A DNA stretch of 64,000 nucleotides from Macrostomum lignano (Eukaryota), in assembly GCA_002269645.1 (NCBI GenBank), contig NIVC01003924.1, forward strand, positions 5,407 to 69,406. Direction: 5' to 3'. The notes beneath the pieces were generated by a model, which made no database searches, had not been told where the DNA came from, and saw only the letters and a list, made by a program, of their open reading frames with translations. Shown piece by piece: positions 5,888 to 54,930 of this stretch. A program made the translations under genes and the position numbers. Position 1 is the stretch's first letter, and every line of letters starts with the position of its first letter.

Positions 5888-7893
5888 GGACCTCAGGATC
5901 CGAGATTGCTAGAATCGGGATCTCAGGATCCAGGATTGCTACAATCGGGATCTCAGGATCCGGGATTGCTACAATCGGGATCTCAGGATCCGGGATTGCT
6001 AGAATCGGGACCTCAGGATCCAGGATTGCTACAATCGAGACCTCAGGATCCAGGATTGCTACAATCGGGACCTCAGGATCCAGGACTGCTACAATAGGGA
6101 CCTCAGGATCCGGGATTGCTACAATCGGGACCTCAGGATCCAGGACTGCTACAATAGGGACCTCAGGATCCGGGATTGCTACAATCGAGACCTCAGGATC
6201 CAGGATTGCTACAATCGGGACCTCAGGATCCAGGATTGCTACAATCGGGACCTCAGGATCCGGGATTGCTAGAATCGGGACCTCAGGATCCAGGACTGCT
6301 ACAATAGGGACCTCAGGATCCGGGATTGCTAGAATCGGGATCTCAGGATCCGGGATTGCTACAATCGGGACCTCAGGATCCAGGACTGCTACAATAGGGA
6401 CCTCAGGATCCGAGATTGCTAGAATCGGGACCTCAGGATCCAGGATTGCTACAATCGGGACCTCAGGATCCAGGACTGCTACAATAGGGACCTCAGGATC
6501 CGGGATTGCTACAATCGGGATCTCAGGATCCGGGATTGCTAGAATCGGGACCTCAGGATCCAGGACTGCTACAATAGGGACCTCAGGATCCACGATTGCT
6601 AGAATCGAGACCTCAGGATCCAGGATTGCTACAATCGAGACCTCAGGATCCAGGACTGCTACAATCGGGACCTCAGGATCCGGGATTGCTACAATCGGGA
6701 CCTCAGGATCCAGGACTGCTACAATAGGGACCTCAGGATCCAGGACTGCTACAATCGGGATCTCAGGATCCAGGATTGCTATAATCGGGACCTCAGGATC
6801 CACGATTGCTAGAATCGAGACCTCAGGATCCAGGATTGCTACAATCGAGACCTCAGGATCCAGGACTGCTACAATCGGGACCTCAGGATCCGGGATTGCT
6901 AGAATCGGGACCTCAGGATCCGGGATTGCTACAATCGGGACCTCAGGATCCAGGATTGCTACAATCGAGACCTCAGGAGCCAGGATTGCTACAATCGGGA
7001 CCTCAGGATCCAGGATTGCTACAATAGGGACCTCAGGATCCGGGATTGCTACAATCGGGATCTCAGGATCCGGGATTGCTAGAATCGGGACCTCAGGATC
7101 CAGGACTGCTACAATAGGGACCTCAGGATCCGGGATTGCTACAATCGGGATCTCAGGATCCGGGATTGCTACAATCGGGACCTCAGGATTCAGGACTGCT
7201 ACAATAGGGACCTCAGGATCCGAGATTGCTAGAATCGGGACCTCAGGATCCAGGATTGCTACAATCGGGACCTCAGGATCCAGGACTGCTACAATAGGGA
7301 CCTCAGGATCCGGGATTGCTACAATCGGGATCTCAGGATCCGGGATTGCTAGAATCGGGACCTCAGGATCCAGGACTGCTACAATAGGGACCTCAGGATC
7401 TAGGACTGCTACAATCGGGATCTCAGGATCCAGGATTGCTATAATCGGGACCTCAGGATCCACGATTGCTAGAATCGAGACCTCAGGATCCAGGATTGCT
7501 ACAATCGGGACCTCAGGATCCGGGATTGCTAGAATCGGGACCTCAGGATCCGGGATTGCTAGAATCGGGACCTCAGGATCCAGGATTGCTACAATCGAGA
7601 CCTCAGGAGCCAGGATTGCTACAATCGGGACCTCAGGATCCAGGATTGCTACAATAGGGACCTCAGGATCCGGGATTGCTACAATCGGGATCTCAGGATC
7701 CGGGATTGCTAGAATCGGGACCTCAGGATCCAGGATTGCTACAATCGAGACCTCAGGATCCGGGATTGCTACAATCGGGACCTCAGGATCCGGGATTGCT
7801 AGAATCGGGACCTCAGGATCCGGGATTGCTACAATCGGGACCTCAGGATCCGGGATTGCTACAATCGGGATCTCAGGATCCGGGACTGCTAGA
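5888..7893 (+). repeat. 30-bp minisatellite (GGGACCTCAGGATCCRGGATTGCTACAATC)
   Basis: About 67 copies in the 7-kb protocadherin intron. Confidence 0.97.
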
Positions 7894-10800: not shown

Positions 10801-10945
10801 GTAAATAAAACTGAAGAAACATTCAAATGAAAATGACCGGAAGTTTCAACCAGTTGTCAAAACCAGCCGTCTTATCTGCTGTGCGACCCAAAAAATGATG
10901 AAGGAGCAAAATGTTTCTCCAGAAGTTTTAGCACCTCTGACTCAC

Positions 10946-11812
10946 CTTTGCAATCACGTAACCTTTGGCCTTGTCCTCGGACACTCGAACCGACGTGCGT
11001 TTAGACTCGAACTCCGGACTATTGTCGTTGACATCCTTGATGACCACGCGGACGGTGATGCGGCCCTTCCGACCGTGTCCGTCCTGGGCCACGAGGTCGA
11101 ACTGGTAGCTCTGCTGCCTCTCAGCGTCCAGGCCCTTCTTCATCAGCAGGTAGGGGTTGCCGTACTCGTCCACATTCAACTCGAAGGTCTCCAAGGTCTC
11201 CGGGCTGGCGCTGGCCGGGTCGATAGTGTACGTCACCCGGCTGAGTTCCGGCGAGAAGTCGTCGTCCTTGGCGATCGGCAGGTCGACCCGCGGGTTCGGA
11301 CAGGCGACCCCCGGCACCAGGCAGACGGACTCGTCCCGCTGGATCTCTTCGTAGGTTGACTGAAACCTCGGCGCGTGGTCGTTGATGTCGCGCACGATCA
11401 AGGTGAACCTGCCGCGCGCCAACCGCCGGCCCTGCAGCTGCGGCTGCGTCGGCGGTGGCAGCTCGCGGACCACCACAGAGAAGGCGTGCCGGCCGCCATG
11501 CGGGCACTTCGCAGTGGACCGGCAGATCGTCTCCAGATCGATGGACGCCTTCAAGCGAATTTCGCCCGAGGACGAGTCGACGCTCACGTAAGCGTCGTGC
11601 ATCTCGAGGGCGTAGGACAGCGGGCCGGCGGAGGTCAGGTGCCGGGACAGGTTGCCAAGGGCAGCGACATTGCCCAGCGCCTGCGGCTGACTTTCCTCTG
11701 ATATTTCGATCGCCTTCTCGAAGGTATACAGAGCGGCCACGCCGGAATGCGATGCGACGGTCGTCAAGGCGACCGCGAAGGTCAGAAGCTCGCGCCAGCT
11801 GCTTAGAGGCAT
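10946..11812 (-). CDS. Protocadherin, first coding exon (signal peptide, EC1, EC2, start of EC3)
   Basis: ORF has a hydrophobic signal peptide and cadherin motifs (IDLE, DINDHAPRF, AKDDD, LDAE, AQDGH, DVNDNSPEF). It ends AAG|GTGAG at 10946/10945. A splice acceptor TTTTTGCAG lies just upstream of the ATG (11823), implying an upstream UTR exon or trans-splicing. Confidence 0.93.
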
Positions 11813-14853: not shown

Positions 14854-14854
<1 letters not shown>

Positions 14855-14957
14855 GTAGTATACGTTTTTTTGACACAAAGCCGATTTCCTTATGGCGAAA
14901 TACATAGTAAGTACAGGCCCAAAAAAATGGCAGAGTCCGAAATTTCATGTGCACGCA
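14854..14957 (+). repeat. Left terminal inverted repeat of the Maverick
   Basis: 14854-14937 is the exact reverse complement of 29499-29582. The match extends imperfectly to about 104 bp. Confidence 0.97.
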
Positions 14958-15412
14958 GTCTGAAATTCCATGTGCACGCAGTCTGAAATTCCAAGTGCAC
15001 GCTAAATATCTTTTACGCAACGTGATTATTCAGACGAATTGCATATCCACCTGTCCAAAATACAAGTAACCGATTCTAGCAATGGTGACACAAACACACT
15101 TCAAAGGATTCCATTCAAGACAAATTTACTCCAAAGCTATTCACACATTTCAAGTGTTTTTGAAATATTGAAAACTTGTGAATATTATCACCCTTTTGAA
15201 GAAAGATAGTAAATGATCTATTCTTGAGTGCCTATAGAATTTTTGCACCAACTTGAGCAGATGGTTTACAGATACTATGTCAACAACTGCGTCAACATGC
15301 TTCTTCTTTATACTATATATATATACGAACACACTGACACAGAAAATATTAAATAACTTAAACCAAGTTTACATTATACTACTTGTTCAACTATACTTAC
15401 ATCTTAAGTGAA

Positions 15413-16274
15413 ATGAAGCGATCACGTCAGCAGGAATTGGCCGAGCGCTATGTTAAACAAGGTAAGATAATCACCTACTCTAGTTCAGTTTTCTTTTTTA
15501 GATTGACTGTTCGCTATAGTTTAGTTTCTAGATTGATTGTTAGTTCGGTTTCTGTTTAGACCGATCCTCTGTTTGTTCAGTCTCTAGATTGATTTTCTGC
15601 TAGTTCGGTTTCTGTTTAGACTAATACTCTGCTAGTTCAGAATTTCTAGATTGATTGTCTGCTAGTTCGGTTTCTGTTTAGACTGATTCTCTGCTAGTTC
15701 AGTTTCTATATACATTGTATACATGCACCTATACCAAATTTCCCTCATCTTATCCATTATTATAGCATTCAAGAATGGTTTCTTCACGCGGCCACCTCCA
15801 GATCAGTGCAAACGCATTTGCCACGACACCACCACATCCAATTCTGCTGCAAGAGCATCATATTCTACATCTCTCGCCAGAGTAACCTCGATTCATGTCG
15901 AGAGACAGACAACTGAGCTAGATCGCATTTACACAAGAACTGATGTTATTCAGTCAATTAGGCAGCAATCGAACCCACGACCAACTGACCAACTGCAGTA
16001 TGCACCACCACCACCATCACCAACCAGCTACAATGACCCAACAAAGCAAACTTGCAGTAAGCCTACAAGTACCAAACCAACGACAGCAACTGAAACACCA
16101 TCATCATCAATTGCTATTTCTACCCAAGTTCAACCGCTGCTAAACTCGCCAATTATTGTACAGAAGGACATCAAGTCTGTAAAAGTCTCTCAAATGAGCA
16201 CAGGCTTCTACCAAGTAGAATTACCAAAGACCTGTAATACAACTCAAGTATTTGAATATTGGGACCTATCTTAA
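15413..16274 (+). CDS. Maverick accessory gene 1, spliced (15413-15461 + 15766-16274), about 185 aa, unknown function, Thr/Ser/Pro-rich centre
   Basis: ATG exon MKRSRQQELAERYVKQ ends G|GTAAGA. The acceptor ...CCATTATTATAG|CA restores the frame of the 15723-16274 ORF (G+CA=Ala). Confidence 0.6.
15481..15710 (+). repeat. Degenerate ~30-bp tandem repeat inside the intron of accessory gene 1
   Basis: Alternating TAGTTCGGTTTCTGTTTAGA.. and TAGTTCAG..TCTAGATTGATT.. units. Confidence 0.75.
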
Positions 16275-16524
16275 AAAGACATTTTTTCTAACTCTTCATA
16301 AAATTTTGCCAGCAATGTGTCCAAGTAATTGCTCTTTTAGTATATATCAAACAAGTCTGTAATCAATAATATAATCTCTATAAATTCATTATTCTAAAAA
16401 ATTCTTTCAATTTTATTCGCCATTTATTGAAATTATTTAATTCAATATAAAGTCAATATCTTGTACAGTCATCATTAAACAAAAATTATTAATCCATGCA
16501 AATAATTTTTTTTTCATACGTTTC

Positions 16525-17215
16525 TTTAGCCATGGTCTGGCTTTTGCCTCAACAGTATGATTTAGCTGTGGTCCAGCTTTTGCCTCAACAGTATGATTTA
16601 GCTGTGGTCCAGCTTTTGCCTCAACAGTTTTTAGCCGTGGTCCGGCTTTTTTGCCTCAGCAGTATGATTTAGCTGTGGTCTAGCTTAAAACTGCATCAAC
16701 AGTGATTTAGCTATAGTCCAGGCTTAACTACCTCAACGATGATTTAGCTATAGTCAAGGCTTAACTGTCTCAACAGTAATTTTAGCTGTTGTCCAGACTT
16801 AACTGCCTCAACAGTGATTTTAGCTGTGGTCCAGGCAACTGTCTCAACAGGGATTTAGCTGTAGTCCGATTAGCTTAACTGTCCAGTTATTTAGCTGTGA
16901 GCCAAGCAGCAGCACCCGTCTCAACAGTGAGAATTAGCTATGGTCAGCTTTACCTCAACTGTGATTTGGCTGCTGTGGTCTAGCATAACTGACTCAACAG
17001 TAATTTTAGCTGTAGTCGTCCAGCTTAACCACCCGTCCAGTTTTATAACCATGGTCCAGCTTAACCACCGTCTCAACGTACAGCGATTTAGTCGTGGTCC
17101 AGCTTAACCGTCTCAACGTACAGTGATTTAGCCATGGGTCTAGTAGCAATTAACCGTATCAATAGTGATTTAGCCGTGGTCCAGCTTAACTGTCTCAACA
17201 CAGTAATTTAGCTTA
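16525..17215 (+). repeat. Internal array of about 18 degenerate ~36-bp palindrome-containing repeats
   Basis: Consensus TTTAGCTGTGGTCCAGCTTAACTGTCTCAACAGTGA. Indels between units rule out a continuous reading frame. Confidence 0.85.
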
Positions 17216-17750
17216 GTCCAAACAGCATTTGTGTGTCAACTGCACTGACTGCATGCGGTTATAGCAGCGGCAGTCATTATAGTCCCAACAAGCTGCGCGT
17301 CGCAGCATGATAGTGTAACTCTATATAGCTTCTGCTCAATATAGGACTGCAAAAGCTGAGTTACAACTATACCTTTTTCTGTTTGAAAAGTAACACTCTA
17401 TATATAGGTTACTCAAGCAATCTCTTGTCACCGTGCGAGCTAAAAAATTCCAACATGCAAGCAAAACTTTCAATAAATTAATTTCATAGCACCGCGTGCA
17501 GCTTATTTTTACTCTAAAATCCAAGATTGCTAATTTTTCAAGTCGCAAAATATTTTAATTACATTCTACTTGAGAACAAAACCAATCTAATGAAGCAGCA
17601 ACCAGCAGTCTTCTTATTAAACGCTTGCCATCGTGTTACTCTTGCAAATTTATAACTAGTGTGCCTAAGATTCATTAATTTTATTGTATAAAATATCAAC
17701 CTACATTTGCGTAAAATTAGACCTAATCATGCAACCCACCCTAGAAACTT

Positions 17751-19122
17751 ATGCCACCTTTGGCACGCAACAATGTCTTAATCAGCACGCAACAATTAAA
17801 TTTGTTTACTAGTTCACAAACAGCATGCAAAGCTTGCTATAAATACAAGACCCGAAATGGTCAATTTTTCATGAGCTCAATCATTACAGCAAAAGAAATA
17901 CTATATTCAATTGCTTGTAAGACATGGCAGCTTGCATCAAGACGGAGTCAATTGTACGCTCCGACTCGAGTCCGATTTTTTACGTTGGAGAGCAGTCTAC
18001 AACCACGACTGGTTCGTCCTGCCAGTTTCGATCTATTGCGTGGAAACCATCAATCGAGTGTACAAAATGGTACCCAATTATATTGCAAACCAAGGCTCCA
18101 ATGGAGCTTTTTCGTGGAATCGCAGAAAGGCCAGAGCTCGATCATCCGTCTTGCAGACACGACTCTCGCGACGCAGTAAGTGTCCAATTTCATCCAGACA
18201 GCTGCGATAAGGAACTCTTCCACTCTCTCCGGTGAGCACCATATTAAATTTATACAATTAATTTTAGGAAACTATATTCATAATTTATATAATGTTTTGC
18301 AGTCAAGTCGAAAAAGGTCTATCGGTCAAGTTGAACGAGATTCAAGATGCTCGACCCTTGGCACGACTAACAAAACCAGCTCATCAGCATGCTAACGACG
18401 TCCTCGAGTTTGTGCCTCAACAATGGCTGGCTATAAAGCCTGCTTACCCTTGTGCCACAATCAGGATCAGCAACGATCATCCACACGGGAAGGAGGTGTC
18501 CATTTCCGATTTCAAAGGTGTCAGCGGTACCTACCAAATGACAGTGCAAGCAACGAGCTTGTATTGTCCAAAAGGCTGCCTCGTCTGGCGCATTACATTC
18601 GCTGTGCGCTCTCTGACACTCATAGAATCTTCCGACAACATGTTGCAGCGCCTCGACATGTTCAAGGGAGTGCTTGCACACCTACCCGCGACCAAGTCAG
18701 CAATTAGAAGCAGGAGTCCGTCCCCAACATCTACCTGTGAGCAAGAAGAAGCAAATGAACAAAGCCTGCAGAATTCAAGCCAGGTGACACCTGCCAAGTC
18801 ACCTGCAAAGCGTCGGTCTACCACCACCGTATCGAAGAAGTCGACTACATCGAATGCAGCGCCAGCCTCTATTGAACCGCCGCCTAAAAAGCAAGTTCGA
18901 AAACGCAGCGGTGCAAAACAGCAAAACAATTCTGCCGAAGCTGGTGCAGATGGCACAGACTGGGTGGAGGCTCCACCAGCAAAGATCTTGGTGAGTACAC
19001 CTGCCTCTGGAACCAGGGTAGCGTCCAAGGAGACAGCATTTTTAAAGCGTGCTGCTGCGGACGCTACTACAGCTAGCGTGTCTTCATCGGACGACTCGTA
19101 CAGCAGCTCTGATGATGAGTAA
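17751..19122 (+). CDS. Maverick accessory gene 2, spliced (17751-18175 + 18303-19122), 414 aa; putative tandem OB-fold ssDNA-binding protein with NLS and acidic tail
   Basis: A perfect donor CA|GTAAGT and the acceptor TGTTTTGCAG|T join the two ORFs in frame (CAT). Shows internal repeat-like segments, PPPKKQVRKR and a terminal SSSDDSYSSSDDE. The function is inferred. Confidence 0.6.
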
Positions 19123-19332
19123 CAAAATTTTTGACTAATTTTATCCAAGTTTTAACTAACTTATTCCACTATATTTATCAAATTTTTGGCTAGGGAAATA
19201 TTATTTTTTAGGGAAAAGCTCAAAACATTTTTTGCTACTCCTTGTACGCTAACCAGGTTTTGTAATTTAATATTAGAATTTACGATAGTATAGTCATGTT
19301 TAACTTTTCTTATTATTTATTTTCCGTTTTAG

Positions 19333-19890
19333 CGACTTGTCCTATTAATAGTTACTGCGAGTCTGAAGCTGCACCCGTTTGAAAAATTTGATTTAAAGCA
19401 GACCAAACAGAAGCTACAGACCAGAAACCGGTTTTGCAAACTATTCCTAAGCCGACCAACAATGCTAAAGACAATTTATTCAAATGCTAAAATCCAACTT
19501 TATCCAGCAGGAAAACTAACTATATATGGCTGTAAATCAAATTCTCAGATAGTCTCAGTTTTACGATTTATCAACGACACTATTAATTGTGTAGATTTTG
19601 ATTCAGTAAAAATTCAGAGCAGTACCTATGTCGGCTTTATTGGTCATCTTTGGCCAAAATTCGGTTTCTCTAGTCTAAAAAGATATGCAGGCTACTATTC
19701 GAATTATCTGGTTGGATACGATGCAGAAAATTTCCCACAAGCAGTTTCTGTTAGATCAGCATCAAAACCAAGGCTTTTTTGTAACATATTTTTTTCGAAA
19801 AAGTTTGTTATTATGGGCGTTCAAAACACTCATGAATTGAATAATATTCTTAACCATGTCAAGGATTTTTTAATCTCTGTTAATAACTAA
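19333..19890 (+). CDS. Divergent TATA-binding protein (TBP)-like protein
   Basis: Open frame from the acceptor TTTTAG|CGA (19333) to the stop. KFDLKQT, IQLYPAGKLTIYGCKS, FDSVKIQS and YDAENFP...KPRLFCNIFFSKKFVIMG align by eye with both TBP core repeats (KLDLKTI, ALIFSSGKMVCTGAKS, FLDFKIQN, YEPELFP...KPRIVLLIFVSGKVVLTG). Confidence 0.8.
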   Translation, partial: RLVLLIVTASLKLHPFEKFDLKQTKQKLQTRNRFCKLFLSRPTMLKTIYSNAKIQLYPAGKLTIYGCKSNSQIVSVLRFINDTINCVDFDSVKIQSSTYVGFIGHLWPKFGFSSLKRYAGYYSNYLVGYDAENFPQAVSVRSASKPRLFCNIFFSKKFVIMGVQNTHELNNILNHVKDFLISVNN

Positions 19891-20113
19891 ACTTAACAAG
19901 TAAACAATTGCTGTCAAATCGCAGTTGCGATGCATTCTTTTACAAACATTTTGTCTTTTTTTATTTATTTACCAATTGTTTTCTCTAATAGTAAACGTGT
20001 CAGCTATACCTATAACTAACCAAATCATCATTTTTCTTACAGCCGCAAATGACAAACCGGATCATCTATTAATATTATGCTCGATACGCTCGTTGTCGAG
20101 CTAGGTGCACACA

Positions 20114-20827
20114 ATGCCGCGTGCACAATGCCAAATCTGCAGAAAAAAGTTCAGTAATCAAGCCGAGCTGCATGCTCACTCGCATGGTGCTTGTTTTTCA
20201 CCGCAACGATTACTGACCGGATCGCTGCAAAACCTGATCGAAAACCCACCAGATGGGTGGTCCATCGCTTTGCGCGAGTCAGCTCATCGTGGTCGGGTAA
20301 ATTTTGTCGAATTTACTCCCACTCTTGAACAACAAGGCAACAGCTCTGGCGAGTTACTTCCTGGCGAGTTGATTGCGTCTTTAAGAGAACCAATATTTAA
20401 AATATTGGAAAAAATTGGCTCACCCAGTTTATTAATAAGAGTCTGCTTTCACTTGAAAGTGACACTATTTCGACCGAAAACAGCAGCAGACGACAACGAT
20501 GGCTCGAGCAGCGAAGAGATCATTTCGGTCTATTTTAATACCAACATTGCGACAATATCATTTGATGAGACGATTGCAAACAGTGACATGCTGTTATCTC
20601 CCGAGGCCTACAATGACTGGTTCGCACGCGTTATTAATCAGTTGTTAATAAAAATTGACAATTTTCAATCTCGAGGTAGTAATTGGCAATATAGAGCAAT
20701 CGAGCAGCTAGACTTGATGCTCTGCGTTTATCGCAAAAGCCATGCAAGCACACTGTCAACAAATACGTCCCACGGTGGTGTGGGGGCGGGCGGCGGCAGT
20801 GGTGGTGGTGGCGGCGGTGGTGGTGGT

Positions 20828-20859
<32 letters not shown>

Positions 20860-21190
20860 GCGCGGGGAGTCCGGTCCAGTCCGGTCCGGTCCAGTCCGGT
20901 CCGGTCTGGTTAAGCAGCAATCGTTTAAAGTTCCAGTCTCAATCGGTCGCAAAGCTGGAGCAGTACTGCTTCTAAAGCCGCACAGAGCAGTTTAAAGCAT
21001 CAAGACTATTTAAGAGTCTTACACAAGCGACAACTTGTGTTTTCGCGCATACAGTCCATTCGTTCTCGAAAACAGAAAGTTTTTTTTGATGCAACAAAGA
21101 AAACTTGCACTAAGCTTCTTCGATACGAAGCGATCCTGGACAAGTTCAATTAATTCGCTACCCTTTGGACACTGGCACTTGGCTAATTAA
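20114..21190 (+). pseudogene. Protein-primed DNA polymerase B (pPolB) remnant with internal deletion of the exonuclease/polymerase core
   Basis: The N-part has a C2H2-like finger and the Maverick pPolB N-terminal motif IDNFQSRGSNWQY..I..LDL...Y, then SFKVPVSI.RK..V. From about 20974, in another frame, come pPolB C-terminal motifs LKHQDYLRVL..IQSIRSRKQKVF, a 1-nt shift in a T8 run, and MQQRKLALSFFDTKR...INSLPFGHW*. Confidence 0.82.
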
Positions 21191-21482
21191 TTAACAATAT
21201 GCTCTGATCTCTTTTGTTGTACAAAGTAATAGCATGCTATAGAAGACTGTAACCCATCATTAATTTTTTCATTGATCATTATTTACAATAAATAAATGAT
21301 ACCGGCATTCGTTTAAATTATAATTTTAGCACTTTTTTGTGTTTAATTATTTGAAAAAGTATATTTTTTATAGTTAGATTCTCAAGACTAAGCTTGTGTT
21401 TGTAGTAGACGTAAATGTAGTGCTATCGTTCATGTTTCAAGAAAAAAAACTTTTTTTTAAACTTTCAGCTACAAGAATCGAC

Positions 21483-21965
21483 ATGAATCCCGAGCAGCAG
21501 CAGCAACAACAACTAACTGATCGTAAGCTTTTAGTTGAACGTCTATACGATTCGGCAACGATTCCGACCCGAAAAACTGTCGGGTCGATCGGGTATGATC
21601 TTTGCGCTGGCGTCGATGGTACCATTCCGGCCTACGAGTCCCGGAGTGTGCGAACCGGACTCAAAATTCGCTTACCGCCTGGTACCTATGGCAGGATAGC
21701 GGGACGTTCCAGCATGGCTCTGCACAGCTTATTTGTTGGCGGTGGCGTAATCGACCCCGACTATACTGGTGAAATCTGTATAGTCTTGTTTAATTACAGT
21801 CCGGAAGACTTTGAGTACTATGCCGGGCTCAGTATTGCACAACTGGTTCTGGAGCAGGCCGTGCTTGCTTCAGTCTATGTGACTGAAGCAGACAATTCGA
21901 TTCGGATGATTGAGCCGCCGACCAAGCGGCGCGGCTTTGGCGGCTTTGGCAGCACTGGCCAATAA
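21483..21965 (+). CDS. dut: dUTPase
   Basis: All five motifs are present: GYDL, GRSS, GVIDPDYTGEI, IAQLV and RRGFGGFGSTG. Confidence 0.96.
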   Translation: MNPEQQQQQQLTDRKLLVERLYDSATIPTRKTVGSIGYDLCAGVDGTIPAYESRSVRTGLKIRLPPGTYGRIAGRSSMALHSLFVGGGVIDPDYTGEICIVLFNYSPEDFEYYAGLSIAQLVLEQAVLASVYVTEADNSIRMIEPPTKRRGFGGFGSTGQ

Positions 21966-22056
21966 GTATAATAATAATAATAAACTGATTTTTTTCTTTG
22001 GTGATTGGTGCACTATGCGAGAGCTTTGTAAATACTATAAGCAATTTTAAAAATTT

Positions 22057-22500
22057 ATGCCTAAAATATATGTTGTAAAAATGTCTCCAGCGAAAGATCG
22101 AGGTTTTAAAAAGAAAAAGAAGAGCATTCGTAAAAAGAAGAAATCTATTAGAAAGATTAATAAAAAGCAACAAGGTTATGGTGTCGTAAATTGGTTAATT
22201 AATCATTTACCATTTGAAGCACATTTACCCGGCGGATATCAGTTTTGTGGTCCAGGTACGCAACTGCAAGCTAGGCTAGCAAAAGGACAACGAGGAATTA
22301 ATCGGCTTGACAATTTGTGCATGCTTCACGACGTGGCCTATGATAAAAATTCTGACGTGCAAGAGAGGTTAAAAGCTGATAAGCTATTAGAATCTGGTGC
22401 ACGAGAGATTGCCCACGATCCGTCTACTGGTTGGAAAGAAAAACTAGCTGCGAAGTTGGTTACCAAGGTTATGCAAGTTAAGCAACGCTTTGGTGCTTGA
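22057..22500 (+). CDS. Parvovirus-type phospholipase A2 virion protein (PLA2X) with basic N-terminus; probable start 22081
   Basis: Ca-binding loop YQFCGPG and catalytic N.LD..C..HD..Y are present. This protein is typical of adintoviruses/Mavericks. Confidence 0.9.
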   Translation: MPKIYVVKMSPAKDRGFKKKKKSIRKKKKSIRKINKKQQGYGVVNWLINHLPFEAHLPGGYQFCGPGTQLQARLAKGQRGINRLDNLCMLHDVAYDKNSDVQERLKADKLLESGAREIAHDPSTGWKEKLAAKLVTKVMQVKQRFGA

Positions 22501-22502
22501 AA

Positions 22503-23192
22503 ATGCAGCAGCCATACAATATGCAACTAGCTCACGATTCTACATTTATTATTGCTGGACCTTCAAACTCGGGTAAAACTGAATGGACGTTGCGTTTGTT
22601 GACTGAACGAAAAGAATTATTTGATAAAAAACCGTGCCGTCTTGTTTGGTGCCATGGATCAAGTTTGAAACCAGACGATCAACAACGAATTAGAACATGC
22701 TGGCAAAAAAGCGGTCTTGACCCTATTGTTTTTGTACCCGAATTCACACCACAGATGATTAATCGTTTTTTACCACACGATTTGGTTGTTGTTGACGACT
22801 TGCAAAGCGAGATTGCTAAGTTGCCAGAATTTACTAGTATGTTTACAAAGCATGCGCATCATATCCCTTTGACTTGTCTGTACCTTTGTCAAGGTCTTTT
22901 TAACAAGTCTGATCCAGAAGCACGCATGCGAAGTTTATCAGCTAGTTATATTTGTCTAACTCGTAGTGTGCGCGATCGAACCACAGTTGAACATCTCGGT
23001 CGACAAATGTATCCGCGTAATAGTAGGTTTCTAGTGAATGTGTATGAAGACGCAACAAATAACAAACCTTTTTCATATTTATTCATTGACCTGCGGCAAG
23101 TGACACCAGATTTTTTACGATTGAGAACAGGAATATTTTCTGGTGATGAACAAGTTGTCTATACTCGTGAATGTGATGCAAAGTTTGTGTAA
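22503..23192 (+). CDS. FtsK-HerA/A32-like DNA packaging ATPase
   Basis: Walker A GPSNSGKT, Walker B VVVDD, HAHH..T..YLCQ and R..SLSASY. Confidence 0.93.
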   Translation: MQQPYNMQLAHDSTFIIAGPSNSGKTEWTLRLLTERKELFDKKPCRLVWCHGSSLKPDDQQRIRTCWQKSGLDPIVFVPEFTPQMINRFLPHDLVVVDDLQSEIAKLPEFTSMFTKHAHHIPLTCLYLCQGLFNKSDPEARMRSLSASYICLTRSVRDRTTVEHLGRQMYPRNSRFLVNVYEDATNNKPFSYLFIDLRQVTPDFLRLRTGIFSGDEQVVYTRECDAKFV

Positions 23193-23249
23193 TATTATTA
23201 TAAGCAAATTATAAACTGTTGTCAATATTAGTTTGTGTTTTATTTCAAA

Positions 23250-24239
23250 ATGAGTTTTTACGTTTTTTTGCCGTCAAACGATATCAGTTACGAAACCAAC
23301 TCGCCTAATGAATTTCGAGTGCGACTAACTGAACCAATAAATTTATTGAACGGATTCTTCGAGGTTGCACTAGTTGAATTACTGTGCCATGGAGCAATTA
23401 CGACGCCAAATGCTCATCGTGAGCGTCGATTTGAAGTTCCATATTTTGCGGACATTGACTCAATAATACGATTAAAGAAAAACTATTGGGGTCGTGTTTG
23501 GGCAGAGGCAGACTTGGATGCTTACGTTTCCTGGCAACCGTCTGGTACAGATGAAAAATTTGCCTGGCTTTTACGAAATTCAGGCGAAAAAACTATTGGA
23601 TTAGAACTACCAGTTACATTTATGGACGCTTTCAAATTTGACTCTTGGAAGAAACTTTCTGGACTTGTCTCGGAAAAATTATCAAAACCTGCCGCTGGTA
23701 GTGTACAACCACCGGATGGTTCATACTTGGATTTGATAAAAAGTCTCGACAATACTCTAGCGCTAGTACCTGAGAACTATTATGTTTTTTATTGTGTTCT
23801 ATCGCCTGGTGAAGCTATACGACTTGTTTCGCATGGAGACTATCTTCGAAAAACGGAAGGAGAAGTGTACATCAAAGTACACCAATATTGGTTGAGAAAT
23901 CGTGTTTGGCGCATTAACAAAACCTACTTGGATGCTGTGCTACCTTCTCCGATGCCTAGTAAAACGGTTTACATGTACTGTTACACAGATATAATCGAGT
24001 ATCAAGCAGTGGGAAGTACATCAGTACCGTTGCTTCGAGTTGTGGAACTCCAACAAAAGAAAAACGGAGAACTTATACGCGATAGCAGTGCATTGCAAAC
24101 ACCCTACTACTTGAAAACAAATCGACAACAAATTCACGAGATTTCGATTCGACTATCGGACCAGCGCGGAAAACCGTTTAATTTTGATCCGGGAGCACAC
24201 GTTGTTGTCGTACTGCATTTTAAACATAGGTCGGACTAA
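23250..24239 (+). CDS. Minor capsid protein (penton, single jelly roll)
   Basis: The Maverick-typical N-terminus FYVFLPSN...F.V.L...I.L.G.FEVALVE and C-terminus MYCYTDIIE...VG....PLLRVV...PYY....I..ISIRL.DQ.G are both present. Confidence 0.85.
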   Translation: MSFYVFLPSNDISYETNSPNEFRVRLTEPINLLNGFFEVALVELLCHGAITTPNAHRERRFEVPYFADIDSIIRLKKNYWGRVWAEADLDAYVSWQPSGTDEKFAWLLRNSGEKTIGLELPVTFMDAFKFDSWKKLSGLVSEKLSKPAAGSVQPPDGSYLDLIKSLDNTLALVPENYYVFYCVLSPGEAIRLVSHGDYLRKTEGEVYIKVHQYWLRNRVWRINKTYLDAVLPSPMPSKTVYMYCYTDIIEYQAVGSTSVPLLRVVELQQKKNGELIRDSSALQTPYYLKTNRQQIHEISIRLSDQRGKPFNFDPGAHVVVVLHFKHRSD

Positions 24240-24295
24240 TTTATAAGCAAAGATTAATTGTGTAATAGAAAATTTTGTGAATTTGTTTTGTAAGA

Positions 24296-24724
24296 ATGAG
24301 CGAACTAACAGAAAAAGGAAAACAAAATGCTCGCTCATTGTGTCAGTGTGCTTTTTTACTACAAATTGTTTATCGGCTAAAGCATCCAAAGCAGAGAAAA
24401 AGTTTTTTACAAACACTTTCAGAGTCGGAGATACGATGTCTAGTAGACTTTCTGTTTAATATTATTAGTGGACGTATTAAAATTAGTAACTGTAACAAAA
24501 GACGACTTGAGAAGCATCGCAGATATATACGCCAGCTTTTGGAACAGAAGACTCCAATTACTGCAAAAAGGAAAATACTTGTCCAACACGGAGGATTTTT
24601 ACCTTTTTTGGCTCCAATTATTGCCGCTCTACCTGCTATAAGCACTGCGCTTGGGATAACGTCTGGAGTAGTTGGTACCGCCGCGGGAGCAGCGAATTTA
24701 ATACGATCAATTCAACGAAAGTAG
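24296..24724 (+). CDS. Conserved Maverick small virion protein with QHGG|FLP site and hydrophobic C-terminal helix
   Basis: The pattern L...K.RK.LL......I.CL....NI..G.I.I....K.RL.K....IR.L......KRK.L.Q.GGFLP recurs in Polintons. A protein VI-like role is an inference. Confidence 0.7.
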   Translation: MSELTEKGKQNARSLCQCAFLLQIVYRLKHPKQRKSFLQTLSESEIRCLVDFLFNIISGRIKISNCNKRRLEKHRRYIRQLLEQKTPITAKRKILVQHGGFLPFLAPIIAALPAISTALGITSGVVGTAAGAANLIRSIQRK

Positions 24725-24734
24725 TAGGAATATA

Positions 24735-25424
24735 ATGCGAACTAACGAGAGTAGTAGTTTTCAACGAATGTATCTAGTACCTGAATCTGTGTATCAATCT
24801 GCATGTCAAGGTGCAGAGCAAGGATCGTCACCAACTGCTGAGACACCTCGAAAAACTGAAGTTTTAGACGCACCGCAAGATGCTCTGGCAAAAAATATGG
24901 TGGAAATGAGAGACCAAATGGATAACTTGGACAAGGAAATGGAAAAGGAGCCAAATTACACAGCTCAATTGAAACGAAGCAGATTGGAAGACAAACTTTT
25001 AAAATTGCGCAAAGTCTATCGCACTGGAGACGAGGACAATCTGTCACTTGTTCGCAAAGGGACTACTGTAAGAAGTTCATATGCCAGCGAATCAAGGGAA
25101 ATTCCTAAAGTTTTTTTACCACGTTTCGAAGCTCTCGCTCAAAACCTATTTTCGGACATGGACAAGAATGCAGAACCAATGCTGGCTAATTTGACTGATG
25201 CCGAGATACAAGATCTCATGGAATATGTTGTTCGAGACAGACCGCTTAAGCGACACGAGACTCAACCGCCTAGTGGACTAAAAACATTTTTAGACTTTCT
25301 TCGAAAACGTGGAATCGCAGCAAACCAAATCGGGCGTCATGTACGAAACGAGCTAATGTCTGCTCCAAAAACTGTTGCAAAGGAGGATCTTAGTCTGTTT
25401 GAAAATTATCAAACACTGAATTAA
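24735..25424 (+). CDS. Maverick hypothetical helical/coiled-coil protein
   Basis: 229-aa intact ORF with an RMYLVP N-terminal motif, in its usual position upstream of the integrase. Confidence 0.7.
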   Translation: MRTNESSSFQRMYLVPESVYQSACQGAEQGSSPTAETPRKTEVLDAPQDALAKNMVEMRDQMDNLDKEMEKEPNYTAQLKRSRLEDKLLKLRKVYRTGDEDNLSLVRKGTTVRSSYASESREIPKVFLPRFEALAQNLFSDMDKNAEPMLANLTDAEIQDLMEYVVRDRPLKRHETQPPSGLKTFLDFLRKRGIAANQIGRHVRNELMSAPKTVAKEDLSLFENYQTLN

Positions 25425-25536
25425 GTTGTTTTAAAATTACAGATTACGTTTTAACAAAATTGATTCGAGCACTATAAGCTTTTTAAAAAGGTTAATTTTT
25501 TGTTTATGAAAAATATATAGTTTAATAAGACAAACC

Positions 25537-25725
25537 ATGTCATCTATCTTCCAAAAACTTTTGATTCGTCTCTGTGAGTTTTTTTGCATAAAATCTGAAT
25601 GTGTGCCGTTTCTGGGAAAGGAGCACAACGAGGATACTGACGGAGATTCGATCGAGGCTTCGTTCTTTTGTTGCAACTGTCAAACGACTAGCATCAATCT
25701 AACTGATGATGAAGCGAGTGCGTAA
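25537..25725 (+). CDS. Small Cys-rich/acidic ORF (62 aa) overlapping the integrase start
   Basis: Its ATG is 64 bp after a TATAAGC motif. There is no homology evidence. Confidence 0.35.
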   Translation: MSSIFQKLLIRLCEFFCIKSECVPFLGKEHNEDTDGDSIEASFFCCNCQTTSINLTDDEASA

Positions 25726-26866
25726 GGAAATTGAAGAATTTTTGACGGATGCTTTTTTTAACTTGAACAGGCCTACTTCATTTAGTGGTAACAAGACTAT
25801 ACTTGTTCGTGAAGTACGTAAAAAGTTTCCACAGATTACGAACAAAGTTGCAAAGCGCGAAGTTGATAATTGGGTGCGATCAACAAATGAGCATCATTTA
25901 TTTCGAAAAACACGACGAAACTTTCCAACTCCAAAAATTAGTGTGCCACCAGTTGCAAAGTTTCAGTTTCAAATCGATTTGGCAGATTTACCTCAATACA
26001 AGACGGAAAATCGAGGTTATCGTTACATACTTGTTCTTATCGACTGTTTTACTAGAGTTGTACGACTAAGACCATTGCGTACAAAGAAGCCTTCAGAAGT
26101 TAGTCAAGTATTACTAGAGATTTTTCGAAGTGGTTTTAAGCCTGTTTATTTACAAGGTGATGCTGGTATGGAGTTTCTCGGAAGAGCTACACGTCAAATG
26201 CTGAAACAGGAAGGAGTTCGATTTTTTGTTAGCCAAAGCAATTACAAGGCAAGCATGGCTGAACGATTTATCCGCTCGTTAAAGGAACGTCTATTACGAT
26301 ACTTTCGAGCAAAAAATTTACCTCGATGGTTTGACATTTTACCGCAATTGGAAGATAATTTCAACTCTAGTCCTCATCGATCCTTGAGTGGAGAAACACC
26401 AAAACGGGTAGAGACAGACCCGCATTTACAAGGAATTTTGTGGGACAAAATGTTTGCGAAGTCGTACACTAAAAAGAATGAGAATAAATTTAAAGTTGGT
26501 GATTGGGTTAGAATTACACGACGTCGAGGAACATTTGAAAAAGGATACACTACGACTTGGAGTAATTCAAAATATCGCATTCATCGTGTACACTTGACAG
26601 ACCCGCCAATGTACGAATTAGTGGACCCTGAAGATGGATTTGAAGTGCTGAAAGGAAGGTTTAACCAAGCGGAACTAATGTTGGTAAACGAGACAGATGA
26701 AACACCTAATGAAATTGAAAAAGTTATTGAAACTGATCGAGCGAAAAATGGAAGTCGTCTGTATCTAGTAAAATGGAAAGGTATGCCAATCTCAAGAAGT
26801 CAGTGGTTAAACGAAAATGATCTTGACGCAAAGACTGCTAAACTATTTTCTAAAGTGTATAAGTAA
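25706..26866 (+). CDS. Retroviral-like (rve) DDE integrase with C-terminal chromodomain
   Basis: Catalytic QIDLAD, LQGDAGMEF and AERFIRSLK are present. The chromodomain reads IEKVI.....NG.RLYLVKWKG.P.S..QW. Confidence 0.96.
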   Translation: MMKRVRKEIEEFLTDAFFNLNRPTSFSGNKTILVREVRKKFPQITNKVAKREVDNWVRSTNEHHLFRKTRRNFPTPKISVPPVAKFQFQIDLADLPQYKTENRGYRYILVLIDCFTRVVRLRPLRTKKPSEVSQVLLEIFRSGFKPVYLQGDAGMEFLGRATRQMLKQEGVRFFVSQSNYKASMAERFIRSLKERLLRYFRAKNLPRWFDILPQLEDNFNSSPHRSLSGETPKRVETDPHLQGILWDKMFAKSYTKKNENKFKVGDWVRITRRRGTFEKGYTTTWSNSKYRIHRVHLTDPPMYELVDPEDGFEVLKGRFNQAELMLVNETDETPNEIEKVIETDRAKNGSRLYLVKWKGMPISRSQWLNENDLDAKTAKLFSKVYK

Positions 26867-26907
26867 CACATGAATTGGGATTGCATGACGAAGAGAAGAC
26901 TGTTGAA

Positions 26908-27366
26908 ATGGATCCTATTTTTGCTTTTTATTCTGGTCCGAATAGATCTGCTGAAGGTGGAGGTGGATATGGCATTCCTGTTTACGAAGGTTACGGTTTT
27001 TTGTCAAATTTGGCGGACAGATTGGTGTATCCTGTACTACGCAACGCAAAGAAAGATTTCTTGGATCGTGGTCTGGAGTATTTGAAAAGTGCGACAGCAA
27101 AAATTGGTATGGGTCGGAAGCGTCACTTGGACACAGAATCGAGCGAAGAGATGTTTAATACAACTGCAGTTTCGAGACCAAAGCGAAGGAAAAGAACCAG
27201 TGGAGTGGCTATAAGCTTAGGAAAGAAGAAACGGCAAAAGAAACGACGAACAAGACAGTGTGGAAAGGGACGCGTGAACAAAAGAAAACGCAAGAAGACC
27301 GGTGGTATAGGAAAACGTCGAACTGCTACTGCAAGCAAGAAACTTTTTAGTCTGTTTGAAAAGTAG
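26908..27366 (+). CDS. Basic core/DNA-condensing protein (adenovirus pVII-like role inferred)
   Basis: MDPI..Y..GGGGYGIPVYEGYGFL N-terminus with GxG sites, and a very Lys/Arg-rich C-terminus. Confidence 0.7.
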   Translation: MDPIFAFYSGPNRSAEGGGGYGIPVYEGYGFLSNLADRLVYPVLRNAKKDFLDRGLEYLKSATAKIGMGRKRHLDTESSEEMFNTTAVSRPKRRKRTSGVAISLGKKKRQKKRRTRQCGKGRVNKRKRKKTGGIGKRRTATASKKLFSLFEK

Positions 27367-27367
27367 C

Positions 27368-28690
27368 ATGAACCATTTGCTTGGACCTGATATTGCTGCT
27401 CTTAAAAGTGAATTGTCGCTATTTGATCAAAGTCCTGTTCAGTTTAGTGTTTTGGATAATCGATATACTAACATTCAACCGCAACATGGTATTACAAAAG
27501 GATCACCTATCGAATTTGAAGTTGTGCCTGCAGGCGATTTGTATTTGGATCTACAAGAAACTGTGCTCACGGTATGCTTCAGCGTTAGTGATAGTGAAGG
27601 TGAACCTATAGATGCAACGAAAAATTTTGTTTGTTTGAATAATTTGGTTATTGGAACATTGTTTGAGGACGTTCAATTTACTATTGGCGATACTGTAGTT
27701 GAAGGTGGTAGTTTTATGTATCCATACAAGGCTATGCTTCTTACATTACTGGAATATGGACATACAGCTCAGAAGGCTGGTTTACTGCCGTGGGGGTTTT
27801 ACAAGGATACAGCTGGTAAAATGAATGCAACAAGTGAAAACGATGGACGAACAAAGAGGCAGGCGCTCATTGCTAACAATAGGCGGTGCACTGTATCGGG
27901 GCCGTTATTCTTGGATTTGTTTCGTCAGCCTCGGTATCTACTATCAAAGACACCACTACGGATCAAGCTCATACCGGCAAAAAGTAAATTTGTCCTGAGC
28001 GGGTCAACATTAGAAGCTGGTGCGGTTTTAAAAGACTATGAGATCAAGTTTTTGCGTGCAGAACTACGATTGCGGTTTGTTCAACCCTCGCCGAGTGTTA
28101 TCAGTGCACATGCTCATGGACTTAAAAGTCACAATGCATTATATCCGCACCGAAGTCTAAGCCTTGGTACGTTTACTATACCCCGAGGATCGTCTAGCCA
28201 TACGCATGAAAATTTGTTTCCTAGTGGGGTACCACGGCTTTTATTGATGGCAATCGTAAGCAACAAGGCATTCAATGGAAGCATGGACACAAATCCGTTC
28301 AACTTTGAGCATGCAAATGTGAGCAGCATTGGTGTGTTTGTGAATGGAGACTCGGTACCATCGCGTCCGCTGCAGACAAACTTTGGAGATGATTGTGTGA
28401 CAGAGTATAATTTTTTGCTACAACAGCTTGGAATCTATCTACAGGGACGAGATATTGGATTTAATATGCTGGATTACGCCAATGGTTACTCAATTTTTGC
28501 ATTCAGTCTTGGAAGTGAACCTGGTGTCGGACGGGGAGTGCAACTGTATAAGGAAGGAAATGTAAAACTAGAGTTACGCTTCAATGCTGCAACTAGTACC
28601 GTGTACAACGTCATATTTGGAGGTATATTTGACAAGCAACTGCAACTGACTGAACTTCGCGACATTGTTCCTGGCACAGTATGGAAGTAA
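27368..28690 (+). CDS. Major capsid protein (double jelly roll)
   Basis: 440 aa with KSELSLF..P.Q.S, PIEF......YLDL..T, YPYKA.L..LL.Y, GPL.LDLF.Q.RYL, N.FNGS...NPFNF and G.SIFAF.L, characteristic of Polinton MCP. Confidence 0.93.
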   Translation: MNHLLGPDIAALKSELSLFDQSPVQFSVLDNRYTNIQPQHGITKGSPIEFEVVPAGDLYLDLQETVLTVCFSVSDSEGEPIDATKNFVCLNNLVIGTLFEDVQFTIGDTVVEGGSFMYPYKAMLLTLLEYGHTAQKAGLLPWGFYKDTAGKMNATSENDGRTKRQALIANNRRCTVSGPLFLDLFRQPRYLLSKTPLRIKLIPAKSKFVLSGSTLEAGAVLKDYEIKFLRAELRLRFVQPSPSVISAHAHGLKSHNALYPHRSLSLGTFTIPRGSSSHTHENLFPSGVPRLLLMAIVSNKAFNGSMDTNPFNFEHANVSSIGVFVNGDSVPSRPLQTNFGDDCVTEYNFLLQQLGIYLQGRDIGFNMLDYANGYSIFAFSLGSEPGVGRGVQLYKEGNVKLELRFNAATSTVYNVIFGGIFDKQLQLTELRDIVPGTVWK

Positions 28691-29244
28691 TTGATTCTAT
28701 CCTAGATCGTGGTGTAACAGATCGCTTCCTTCGCAATGTTGTATCGAAATTGTGCGCACATTTTTTAAATGTTGTATTTCTTGGTGTTTTTCCTCAAAAC
28801 TTTGTTGGTGGACTTAGACGCTTACCTTTAGACGGTAAAGACTATTTTTTTATCGTTAATACTGACGTCTCCAACCTGCCCGGAAAACATTGGGTATGCG
28901 TTTGGGTTTATGGTCATCGAGCAGGTCGCGGTAGCAAACGACTTGGTGAATATTTTGATTCTCTTGGTCTAGTACCATTGCCAAGAATAGCAAAATGGCT
29001 AGGAAAAGAATGTGGAAATTCGAAAAATTGGTGTTATAGTCGCTTTGCTATCCAAGACCCACAGAGTGGAAGTTGTGGATTTTGGGTAATTTTTTATATT
29101 TTTCATAAGTTGACTACCAGAGGAAACCTAGAGTGTTTTATTCGAAGCGTTTTTAAACGGAATATAATTCGCACTGGTTCGTTTCGATACTTGTATGCTA
29201 AATTACGCAATTTTGTTTTACGAGTGCTGCCTCAATATTTGTAA
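28681..29244 (+). CDS. Adenain-like cysteine maturation protease
   Basis: FLGVFP, IVNTD....PGKHW, EYFDS.G and IQ......CG.W give the His/Asp/Gln/Cys catalytic set. Confidence 0.94.
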   Translation: MEVIDSILDRGVTDRFLRNVVSKLCAHFLNVVFLGVFPQNFVGGLRRLPLDGKDYFFIVNTDVSNLPGKHWVCVWVYGHRAGRGSKRLGEYFDSLGLVPLPRIAKWLGKECGNSKNWCYSRFAIQDPQSGSCGFWVIFYIFHKLTTRGNLECFIRSVFKRNIIRTGSFRYLYAKLRNFVLRVLPQYL

Positions 29245-29478
29245 ACTCGCTAATTTGTGCGTCAAATTGTGTTTGTATCTAGTTGAAATATACAATACTG
29301 CTTGAAAAGAAGAATTTAAATGCGTTAAGTTATACGCGAAATAAGCTTTGTGTCAAATTGAATTTTGGTTGGGCTTGTAATTAGCTGCATTCATTGCGGA
29401 TAGAATTTAGGTGGATAGACAGGTGTTTGCGTAAAAGTGATTCAGCTAATTGGTTAATTCATTGCGTAAAAGCTAGTT

Positions 29479-29582
29479 TGCGTGCACGGCAAATTTCAGA
29501 CTCTGCCATTTTTTTGGGCCTGTACTTACTATGTATTTCGCCATAAGGAAATCGGCTTTGTGTCAAAAAAACGTATACTACT
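29479..29582 (-). repeat. Right terminal inverted repeat of the Maverick
   Basis: Reverse complement of the left end, ending ...CGTATACTACT. Confidence 0.97.
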
Positions 29583-54069: not shown

Positions 54070-54263
54070 CTGGAGTGAAATGGTTGTTGGAATGTCGAAT
54101 AGCAGTCAGCAAGCCAAAGGGTAAGAGACTTACTGAATTCCTAAATAGTTGAGATTTTAAACAATTTTTTGCTGACCTGCAGACCCTTTAGCTAAGATCA
54201 CAGTGTGTTGCTACCTGCCCTTCACACCTGTTTTCCAAAGGCGTATACAGTATATGCACTCAC

Positions 54264-54879: not shown

Positions 54880-54930
54880 CTGTGGATTGTGGGTGGGAGA
54901 CTCTCGTGAGCAAAGGTTGCTTTGAAGGGC

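Follow-up and report, generated by a model that had tools for sequence, protein, structure and literature searches.

An 8-base sequence box, TATA(A/T)G(C/T)(A/T), precedes the virion and integrase genes of a Maverick/Polinton element in Macrostomum lignano, and probably represents a TATA-type core promoter of non-standard sequence, likely recognised by the altered TBP that the element itself encodes, in the manner of the virion promoters that herpesviruses control through a viral TBP. The window analysed here is a stretch of 64,000 nt (contig NIVC01003924.1, positions 5,407 to 69,406), in which positions are counted from the first letter, and its main features are as follows.

14854..29582, forward strand: Maverick/Polinton element of 14.7 kb, with 104-nt terminal inverted repeats starting AGTAGT
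17838..17845, forward strand: ordinary TATA box TATAAATA, upstream of the leftmost conserved gene
17924..19122, forward strand: putative early gene of two exons, with a 71-nt GT..AG intron at 18232-18302
19333..19890, forward strand: TBP-like exon of 185 aa (PF00352, E 2e-7 in two stretches)
20114..20995, forward strand: N-terminal remnant of the DNA polymerase frame, with ~3.2 kb gone at ~20989 relative to a sibling
21432..21965, forward strand: dUTPase, with a spliced-leader acceptor at 21468
22081-22500, forward strand: PLA2X gene
22503-23192, forward strand: packaging-ATPase-like gene, after PLA2X and without a box of its own
23250-24239, forward strand: gene which we take to be penton-like
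24296-24724, forward strand: pX-domain gene
25537-25725, forward strand: 62-aa ORF overlapping the integrase start
25706-26866, forward strand: integrase, likewise downstream of a box
26908-27366, forward strand: basic core-like gene
27368-28690, forward strand: major capsid gene
28681-29244, forward strand: protease gene, after the TATAAGG at 28547

The element is flanked by a 6-nt target duplication (CTAACT on both sides), though this lies inside a CTAA microsatellite. Its integrase matched both rve (PF00665) and the chromodomain (PF00385), and it carries capsid, ATPase and protease genes together, as expected of a Maverick/Polinton. The double-jelly-roll capsid reached 0.98 in the Atlas to PF21738-bearing clusters (share 14-30%), the protease match to PF00770 was weak (E 0.038), the ATPase-like gene was assigned from its P-loop and position, and several ORFs received no family assignment. 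The polymerase frame, which exceeds 1200 aa in sister lineages, was named from its size and position, and left-arm RNA contigs place a spliced-leader acceptor upstream of its remnant, at 20042. The available text of Starrett et al. (PMC8502044) describes a common set for Mavericks, Polintons and adintoviruses, made up of TIRs, the rve integrase with chromodomain, PLA2X, pX, ATPase, protease, the double-jelly-roll capsid and a polymerase frame, most of which, unlike in those elements, is missing from the window copy. In that text, “TBP” occurs only in one figure legend and “promoter” 0 times in the main text, and no description of such a Maverick promoter was found in print.

The earlier note had listed eight sites (six TATAAGC, TATAAGT at 26858 and TATAAGG at 28547) as boxes at a fixed distance before virion genes, and all of their positions and ATG distances were reproduced, as given below.

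22036..22043, forward strand: box TATAAGCA, 45 nt upstream of PLA2X
23199..23206, forward strand: box TATAAGCA, 51 nt upstream of the penton-like gene, strict in 5/5 lineages
24242..24249, forward strand: box TATAAGCA, 54 nt upstream of the pX-domain gene, in 5/5 lineages
24637..24644, forward strand: doubtful box within the pX gene, 98 nt upstream of the ORF at 24735, in its own lineage only
25473..25480, forward strand: box TATAAGCT, 64 nt upstream of the 62-aa ORF, strict in 4/5 lineages and TATATGCA in the fifth
26858..26865, forward strand: box TATAAGTA, which overlaps the stop of the integrase and lies 50 nt upstream of the core-like gene, strict in 4/5 lineages and TTTAAGTA in the fifth
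27210..27217, forward strand: box TATAAGCT within the core-like gene (nnT ATA AGC), 158 nt upstream of the capsid gene, in 5/5 lineages
28547..28553, forward strand: TATAAGG within the capsid gene, rejected as a box

Six of these sites are supported as boxes, and the tight spacing of 45-64 nt holds at five of the eight but not at the remainder. The site at 24637 is doubted, since a 98%-identical sibling has TATTAGC there and the four other lineages lack it, while the TATAAGG at 28547 arises from the Tyr-Lys codons of a conserved capsid motif and is found in 3/5 lineages, with TATAAAG taking its place in a fourth. Nor is the box confined to virion genes, given that the integrase also has one upstream. 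In the whole 64 kb, TATAAGC occurs six times on the forward strand, all within 22036-27210, and 0 times on the reverse strand, and the extended box has 0 matches on either strand of 14855-21900, in keeping with its proposed absence from the left half. The expectation of fewer than one copy was borne out by dinucleotide shuffles of 21900-29300 (n=1000; mean 0.37, maximum 3), none of which reached six, but the excess is marginal once the choice of motif is counted: TATAAGC is the highest-ranked 7-mer of the block (p 4e-6), which becomes ~0.07 after correction for the 16,384 possible 7-mers, so that the count in the window would not by itself settle the case.

What decides the question is the conservation of the box across five lineages with 65-80% capsid identity. 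The box was kept at 27/30 homologous positions, with near-variants in the other three, while the flanks are 23-33% identical, which is the chance level, and contain no second conserved motif where aligned. The G at position 6 and the C/T at position 7 were retained at 30/30 virion-box positions, and the interchange of A and T at position 5, together with A/T at position 8, was seen at 27/27 sites, which fits the reading of 8 bp through the minor groove. Within the core gene, the capsid box forces the codons nnT-ATA-AGC in 5/5 lineages, at a codon-usage product of 0.011-0.025 in each.

The type of promoter is indicated by the ATGs upstream of 18 homology-defined starts: 13 ATGs fall in +8..+35 and 0 between +36 and the start, where 13.0 were expected, although short leaders provide only 2.9 of this 13.0 and the remainder comes from leaders within coding sequence. 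The ATGs end at +35, which argues for a TATA-like box rather than a start site of the baculovirus TAAG type. Together with conservation and spacing, this pattern lends good support to the promoter proposed in the earlier note, whose comparison with baculovirus TAAG is not supported, in view of the same ATG pattern and the TATATGCA variants. In baculovirus late promoters, TAAG is the start site for the viral polymerase. It is also found inside the Maverick box, in groups A, B and D, and a TAAG initiator used by a helper virus's RNA polymerase could be imagined by analogy with virophages and one polinton-like virus, which use helper promoters (available text of 10.1101/2022.07.28.501842). This is very improbable, however, as TATATGCA breaks TAAG at homologous sites, leaving no invariant start site, out-of-frame ATGs are tolerated to +35, TAAG is absent from group C, and both splicing and trans-splicing are seen in the left-arm RNAs, as expected of nuclear Pol II. 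No LEF-8 match was found in genome G000, where the control likewise matched nowhere. Slighter still is the chance that the box serves the upstream gene as a signal for its 3' end or for termination: four boxes do lie at or immediately after a stop codon, but the capsid box is within the upstream coding sequence in 5/5 lineages, in some lineages the penton box comes before the upstream stop and yet stays 43-54 nt from the next ATG, and the dUTPase is provided with a separate AATAAA at 21979. The RNA-contig ends at 26884/26893 and 28712 (three runs) were considered as transcript ends and rejected, the pattern of overlaps, together with a variant known at 26892, pointing to breaks caused by variants.

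The left arm presents a different arrangement. The leftmost gene has a canonical but variable TATA box in 5/5 lineages, the four sisters of the window lineage having TATAAAAG, TATAAAAT and, in two cases, TATATAAG. The left-arm RNA contigs contain one intron and two spliced-leader junctions, and the intron joint of the early gene was present in 2/4 RNA runs. At the virion genes no spliced leader was listed, an absence that carries no weight as evidence. The early gene has a conserved phase-0 splice donor at 18991, and its fold gave a weak lead to single-strand-DNA-binding proteins, all Atlas leads being <0.9. The TBP-like exon has no ATG of its own at the start of the fold and has a conserved phase-0 acceptor; a splice joining it to the early gene was not among the joints listed in the four RNA runs.

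The predicted product of this exon is a divergent TBP-like protein and not a canonical TBP. The structural model is the two-lobed saddle of the TBP family (pLDDT 94.8), with a Foldseek TM of ~0.7 to solved TBPs, which led the 44 PDB matches at E<=0.001, and fold matches were also present in BFVD. Its dN/dS of ~0.15 comes from the sole unsaturated pair in the group of the window element. Among 10 relatives of ~40% identity, the invariant columns include Q55, Y57, T63, F134, P135, N151 and F153 of the DNA face, as well as E132 of the stirrup, the predicted acidic contact for TFIIB, which has D/E plus an invariant E in every viral group. The canonical set, with four Phe that intercalate and two Asn at the centre, is incomplete: the C-lobe keeps both Phe, while the N-lobe has one Tyr and has lost one Phe, and the Asn pair is replaced, in a mapping that relies on an alignment of 15-28% identity. 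A homologue search queried with this TBP retained 0/36 candidates, and scans for related loci with capsid and TBP alignments returned nothing in viral contigs or metagenomes, the lone further match being a bacterial false positive. The host genome has TBP and a TRF2-like gene, and where a box can be recognised at the host H3 genes, it is of the TATAAA type. No multi-copy TFIIB was seen among 15 matches, of which six were fetched and one was read; this locus was host-like, its core interrupted by an intron.

In three further Maverick groups of the same genome, both the TBP clade and the box (YTTAAGAA, YWTAAGAR and TATAAATA) are different. Counted over 16 elements in three groups, each with a distinct TBP clade, the boxes form a block-diagonal pattern; the copies C860, C620, C859, C393, C3264, C1135 and C1769 were too broken for motif discovery and are outside these counts. 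The fourth group, D, in which 4/13 stretches were examined site by site, is sister to B and has in common with it the 3' half AGAA and the N-lobe residues; both groups have lost the proline that fixes T1, both permit C at position 1, and in both the TBP gene itself lies downstream of a box, unlike in the window element. A TBP-like gene is present in group C too, although the box there is the canonical TATAAATA, with T1 kept in spite of the missing proline. No TBP-less Maverick was found, as a TBP-like gene occurs in all four of the groups whose virion block could be read. Given that box and TBP are inherited together, descent by itself would lead one to expect their pairing in three to four groups, which does not prove recognition independently. 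The proposed link between the box and the encoded TBP is supported by the group-wise pairing and the altered DNA-face residues, and it is recognition itself that we infer.

Descent is also the basis of an unlikely alternative, in which a real promoter is read by the TBP or TRF2 of the host, both of which exist, the group variants are fixed by common ancestry, and the viral TBP does other work, such as repressing early promoters or acting as a decoy for host factors. Both traits are common to kin, group C uses a canonical box, and TBP structures accommodate a single G or C at these positions, as in the wild-type TBP crystal entries with G(-26) and C(-25) (1qn5 and 1qn3, among the fold-search matches). 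Against this, the early box varies from one canonical form to another whereas the virion box holds positions 6 and 7 throughout, the boxes of groups B and D begin with neither TA nor necessarily T, the recognisable host H3 boxes depart from the virion type, and the conserved residues of the viral TBP lie on the DNA face and differ between groups. In the available text of PMC1636458, wild-type TBP does not select G at positions 6-7. Distinctly less probable is the binding of the box by some other sequence-specific factor, coded by element or host, alone or as a partner of the viral TBP, comparable to the six-protein complex of herpesviruses. Several ORFs of the element are without a family, and the herpes viral TBP alone does not separate TATA from TATT in vitro (PMC4893493, available text), but the ~30 nt to the inferred start, the 8-bp length and the A/T interchange are all TBP-like, and the aligned flanks offer no second conserved motif.

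If the box is read by the viral TBP, the leftmost gene would be started by host TBP and Pol II from its ordinary TATA box, and the TBP exon would enter the message by alternative splicing or through the host spliced leader, whose AUG would likewise fit the frame. The viral TBP would then bind the box in the minor groove, with its C-lobe at TATA and its remodelled N-lobe at the G-C half, and recruit host TFIIB through the acidic stirrup, so that Pol II would start ~30-36 nt downstream. The outcome would be a switch from early to late expression in which the capsid genes of each Maverick group are largely private to their own TBP. The start sites, binding, splice to the TBP exon, TFIIB contact and timing are the inferred parts of this scheme, the “late” class of the virion genes being suggested by gene content. 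For animal Mavericks at large, the chances are about even that a one-domain viral TBP, produced as an alternatively spliced or trans-spliced exon, drives the change from early to late expression autonomously, and that co-resident lineages have evolved TBP/box pairs orthogonal to one another (TATAWGYW, YTTAAGAA, YWTAAGAR and TATAAATA), which insulate their capsid programmes from the host and from each other.

One closely comparable system is found in beta- and gamma-herpesviruses, where a TATT box of late promoters is read by a viral TBP (EBV BcRF1, KSHV ORF24, HCMV UL87; PMC4893493, available text). The analogy is supported, since both have a TATA variant at structural genes, a canonical TATA at early genes, a virus-coded TBP fold and host Pol II. 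They differ in that the Maverick is an integrating element of 15-18 kb, known here from sequence alone, its TBP is a bare 185-aa exon where the herpesviruses have a large protein belonging to a complex of six subunits, the box is changed in its 3' half (G-C) instead of at position 4, and several box/TBP pairs are found in one genome. The TBPs of large DNA viruses are likewise divergent and two-lobed with DNA-binding positions kept, but most are accompanied by a viral TFIIB and their stirrup has diverged, whereas the Maverick TBP keeps the stirrup acids (Ravarani et al., PMC7221094, available text). Changes of the concave face also let the yeast TBPm3 accept a G:C pair (PMC1636458, available text). 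TBPm3 is a laboratory mutant of the C-lobe that acts at position 2, while the Maverick has a natural Leu-to-Gln change in the N-lobe, matching the C at position 7. This N-lobe position is presumably symmetric to the TBPm3 site.

Activation by a helper has been raised as a possibility for Mavericks (PMC8097293, available text). If the reading proposed here is true, the capsid genes would be switched on by a self-coded TBP and its own box, making a helper unnecessary, and late transcription by viral TBPs would reach from large viruses down to a 15-kb element. The box would serve as a sequence marker of expressed virion programmes, and the Mavericks of this genome would provide a natural collection of TBPs of altered DNA specificity, apparently still fit for host TFIIB, which would give each group a private on-switch for its particle genes.

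All genes of the Maverick/Polinton in the window are carried on the forward strand, including that of a TBP:

14854-29582, forward strand: Maverick/Polinton with 104-nt inverted repeats at its ends, a CTAA microsatellite being the insertion site
19333-19890, forward strand: TBP, by family match

Family matches were also obtained for a dUTPase, a PLA2-like protein, pX and an rve integrase with a chromodomain, that for the adenoviral protease being weak, and a double-jelly-roll capsid was found; the penton and core genes had no family match and are labelled by their sequence features and their place in the gene order. Of the polymerase frame, this copy retains just the beginning, and given that ~3.2 kb are missing at about 20989 in comparison with the sibling copy C84, the family is probably non-autonomous; its capsid protein is identical at 12 places, i.e., the family is highly amplified. 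RNA contigs from two runs (RNA by guess) extend from the ~20989 region into the undeleted polymerase form. Within the left arm, the stretch 15440-17300 contains a low-complexity ORF without assignment (15723-16274), which likely has an upstream exon, and degenerate tandem repeats. The element is flanked by host exons on the minus strand (cadherin-domain and class C GPCR, 2914-11812 and 54211-56866).

The eight TATAAG-type sites reported in the earlier note (22036, 23199, 24242, 24637, 25473, 26858, 27210 and 28547) were all found at these positions. TATAAGC occurs six times on the forward strand of the 64-kb window and never on the reverse, always inside the virion block, an excess that none of 1000 shuffled sequences reached (mean 0.37). 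As the motif was chosen after the fact, the single 7-mer p of 4e-6 shrinks to about 0.07 once all 7-mers are allowed for, and the weight therefore rests on the comparative test. The left arm is indeed free of the extended box (0 matches), and the forward strand of the virion block contains no canonical TATAWAWR. The site at 24637 is present in the window's lineage but is mutated in the copy C105 and missing from the other lineages, which leaves it doubtful rather than dismissed, because another Maverick group of this genome, group C, carries a box at a similar place. TATAAGG at 28547 was rejected, as it encodes Tyr-Lys.

A capsid search of the genome returned 97 matches from the 96 of 475 candidates scored, in many Maverick lineages, and five of these (the window, C889, C297, C4948 and C1680; capsid identity to the window 65-80%) were compared at six homologous positions, before PLA2X, penton, pX, the small ORF/integrase, core and capsid. 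Strict TATAAG(C/T) was found at 27 of the 30 positions, the remainder having TATATGCA (two) or TTTAAGTA (one), with flanking sequence only 23-33% identical, the level expected by chance. The box is thus a real feature, and since its eighth position is A or T in 27/27 sites, its full form is TATA(A/T)G(C/T)(A/T). In the core gene, the low-complexity tail contains the capsid box, which reads nnT-ATA-AGC in all five lineages with a first residue that differs (A, S, G, T, T) and a codon-usage product of 0.011-0.025 for each lineage. No conserved box precedes the ATPase, ORF 24735 or the protease in these lineages, and these genes are presumably reached via read-through or weaker starts. Three sister lineages also have a box near the dUTPase, so the early/late border differs between lineages. 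In L046, a locus of the C4948 lineage, the box before PLA2X lies within a tandem 111-nt unit, giving four to six copies before one gene.

The type of signal is suggested by the ATGs that follow it, counted from the first T of the box at 18 homology-defined starts. From +8 to +35, 13 ATGs were observed against 9.5 expected, and from +36 to the true start there were none against 13.0, of which short leaders would explain an expectation of only 2.9. As ATGs stop at +35, the pattern fits a Pol II TATA-type start some 30-36 nt downstream of the box and not within TAAG. The baculovirus TAAG analogy of the earlier note is not supported by this placement or by the TATATGCA variants, which disrupt TAAG; the same variants, and the tolerance of ATGs up to +35, make a helper-virus TAAG initiator very improbable. 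Ordinary TATA boxes precede the leftmost conserved gene and vary among the five lineages, whereas the virion box shows no drift. Conservation and the ATG pattern together make it highly likely that the box is a promoter, and a 3'-end signal is the most remote of the readings considered.

The preferred reading, which we regard as probable, is that the viral TBP would bind the box before the virion and integrase genes and recruit host TFIIB and Pol II, which would result in a second wave of transcription of these genes. Reading by host TBP or TRF2 is unlikely, and by another factor more unlikely still. The 185-aa TBP exon has a predicted two-lobed TBP fold (pLDDT 94.8, Foldseek TM ~0.7), ~20% identity to host TBP, and is under purifying selection where measurable. 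In yeast numbering, positioned via host TBP in a low-identity alignment, the TBP of the window's group (A) retains the acidic stirrup as well as F190, P191 and F207, and is altered in the lobe contacting the 3' half (L114Q, V122T, F116Y, F99 lost, N69 replaced). In an alignment with 10 relatives of ~40% identity, these residues are among those that do not vary. L205 occupies the position symmetric to L114, and L114Q would match the C at box position 7. According to PMC1636458, the 5' half is contacted by the C-lobe and the 3' half by the N-lobe, the requirement for T at position 1 is imposed by P191, L205V helps to admit G at position 2, and wild-type TBP did not select G at positions 6-7.

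Apart from host TBP and genes resembling TRF2, a Pfam search gave more than 100 further TBP-like matches; the ones inspected come from Maverick groups, with one more, broken type (C860, C620, C859, C393). Every group carries a TBP, each of its own clade (weakly supported for A, 72/67). In the nine elements of group B, whose capsid is 28% identical, TTAAGAA occurs 7-9 times in each block, and group C (capsid 31%) has TATAAATA six times in the two elements counted, with cross-counts on the coding strand of 0-1. In an unbiased 7-mer ranking of hand-picked blocks, the group's box came first or second in 4/5 A, 6/6 C and 9/9 B blocks, and the position and spacing of the boxes are similar between groups, the box of the capsid gene again falling within the core gene. 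Group D, the sister group of B, has (C/T)(A/T)TAAGA(A/G) and shares with it N-lobe residues, the 3' half AGAA, the lack of P191 and C allowed at position 1; group C has no proline yet retains T, and its box is canonical. Three or four box/TBP states that are inherited in this way cannot prove co-evolution. The leftmost gene of a group B copy (L160:7588-8316) encodes a domain resembling the PC4 coactivator (PF02229, E 8e-5, under the cut-off) and lies behind a canonical TATATAAG, and a group C copy has a Fic-domain ORF at its left (L081:2044-2535, PF02661, E 8e-14).

The fold start of the TBP exon has no ATG, and given that a phase-0 acceptor before TBP (19333) and a phase-0 donor inside the early gene (18991) are kept in all five lineages, an early-protein/TBP fusion isoform is predicted; this junction was not among the joints listed in the contigs of four runs, taken as RNA by guess and supported as such by spliced joints. 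A group C copy (L086, around 3660-3800) has the same layout. The first intron of the early gene is spliced in contigs of two of the four runs, and those of one run join a leader at 20042 (polymerase frame) and 21468 (dUTPase), one contig each. This leader is 22-23 nt long, precedes an AG acceptor at both places and matches the M. lignano spliced leader published in PMC8629364; in the genome, a GTAAG donor comes directly after the leader's source. To express its replication genes, the virus-like element apparently draws on trans-splicing by the host.

As far as the accessible text of PMC4893493 describes it, the herpesvirus TATT/viral-TBP system works alike, but it differs in virus class, box and protein size, and the element is not a member of it. 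A literature search, covering main texts and few subscription journals, found no Maverick promoter box or TBP described, though the supplementary gene maps of Starrett et al., the viral TBP list of Ravarani et al. or Repbase may include such TBPs; the accessible text of Starrett et al. names TBP in a figure legend only, and for the terms searched, PMC11071296, PMC8097293 and 10.64898/2026.06.19.733378 gave no passage on TBP or TATA. The contribution of this genome lies in four coexisting box/TBP pairs, the residue pattern, the ATG-based estimate of the start and the splice layout.
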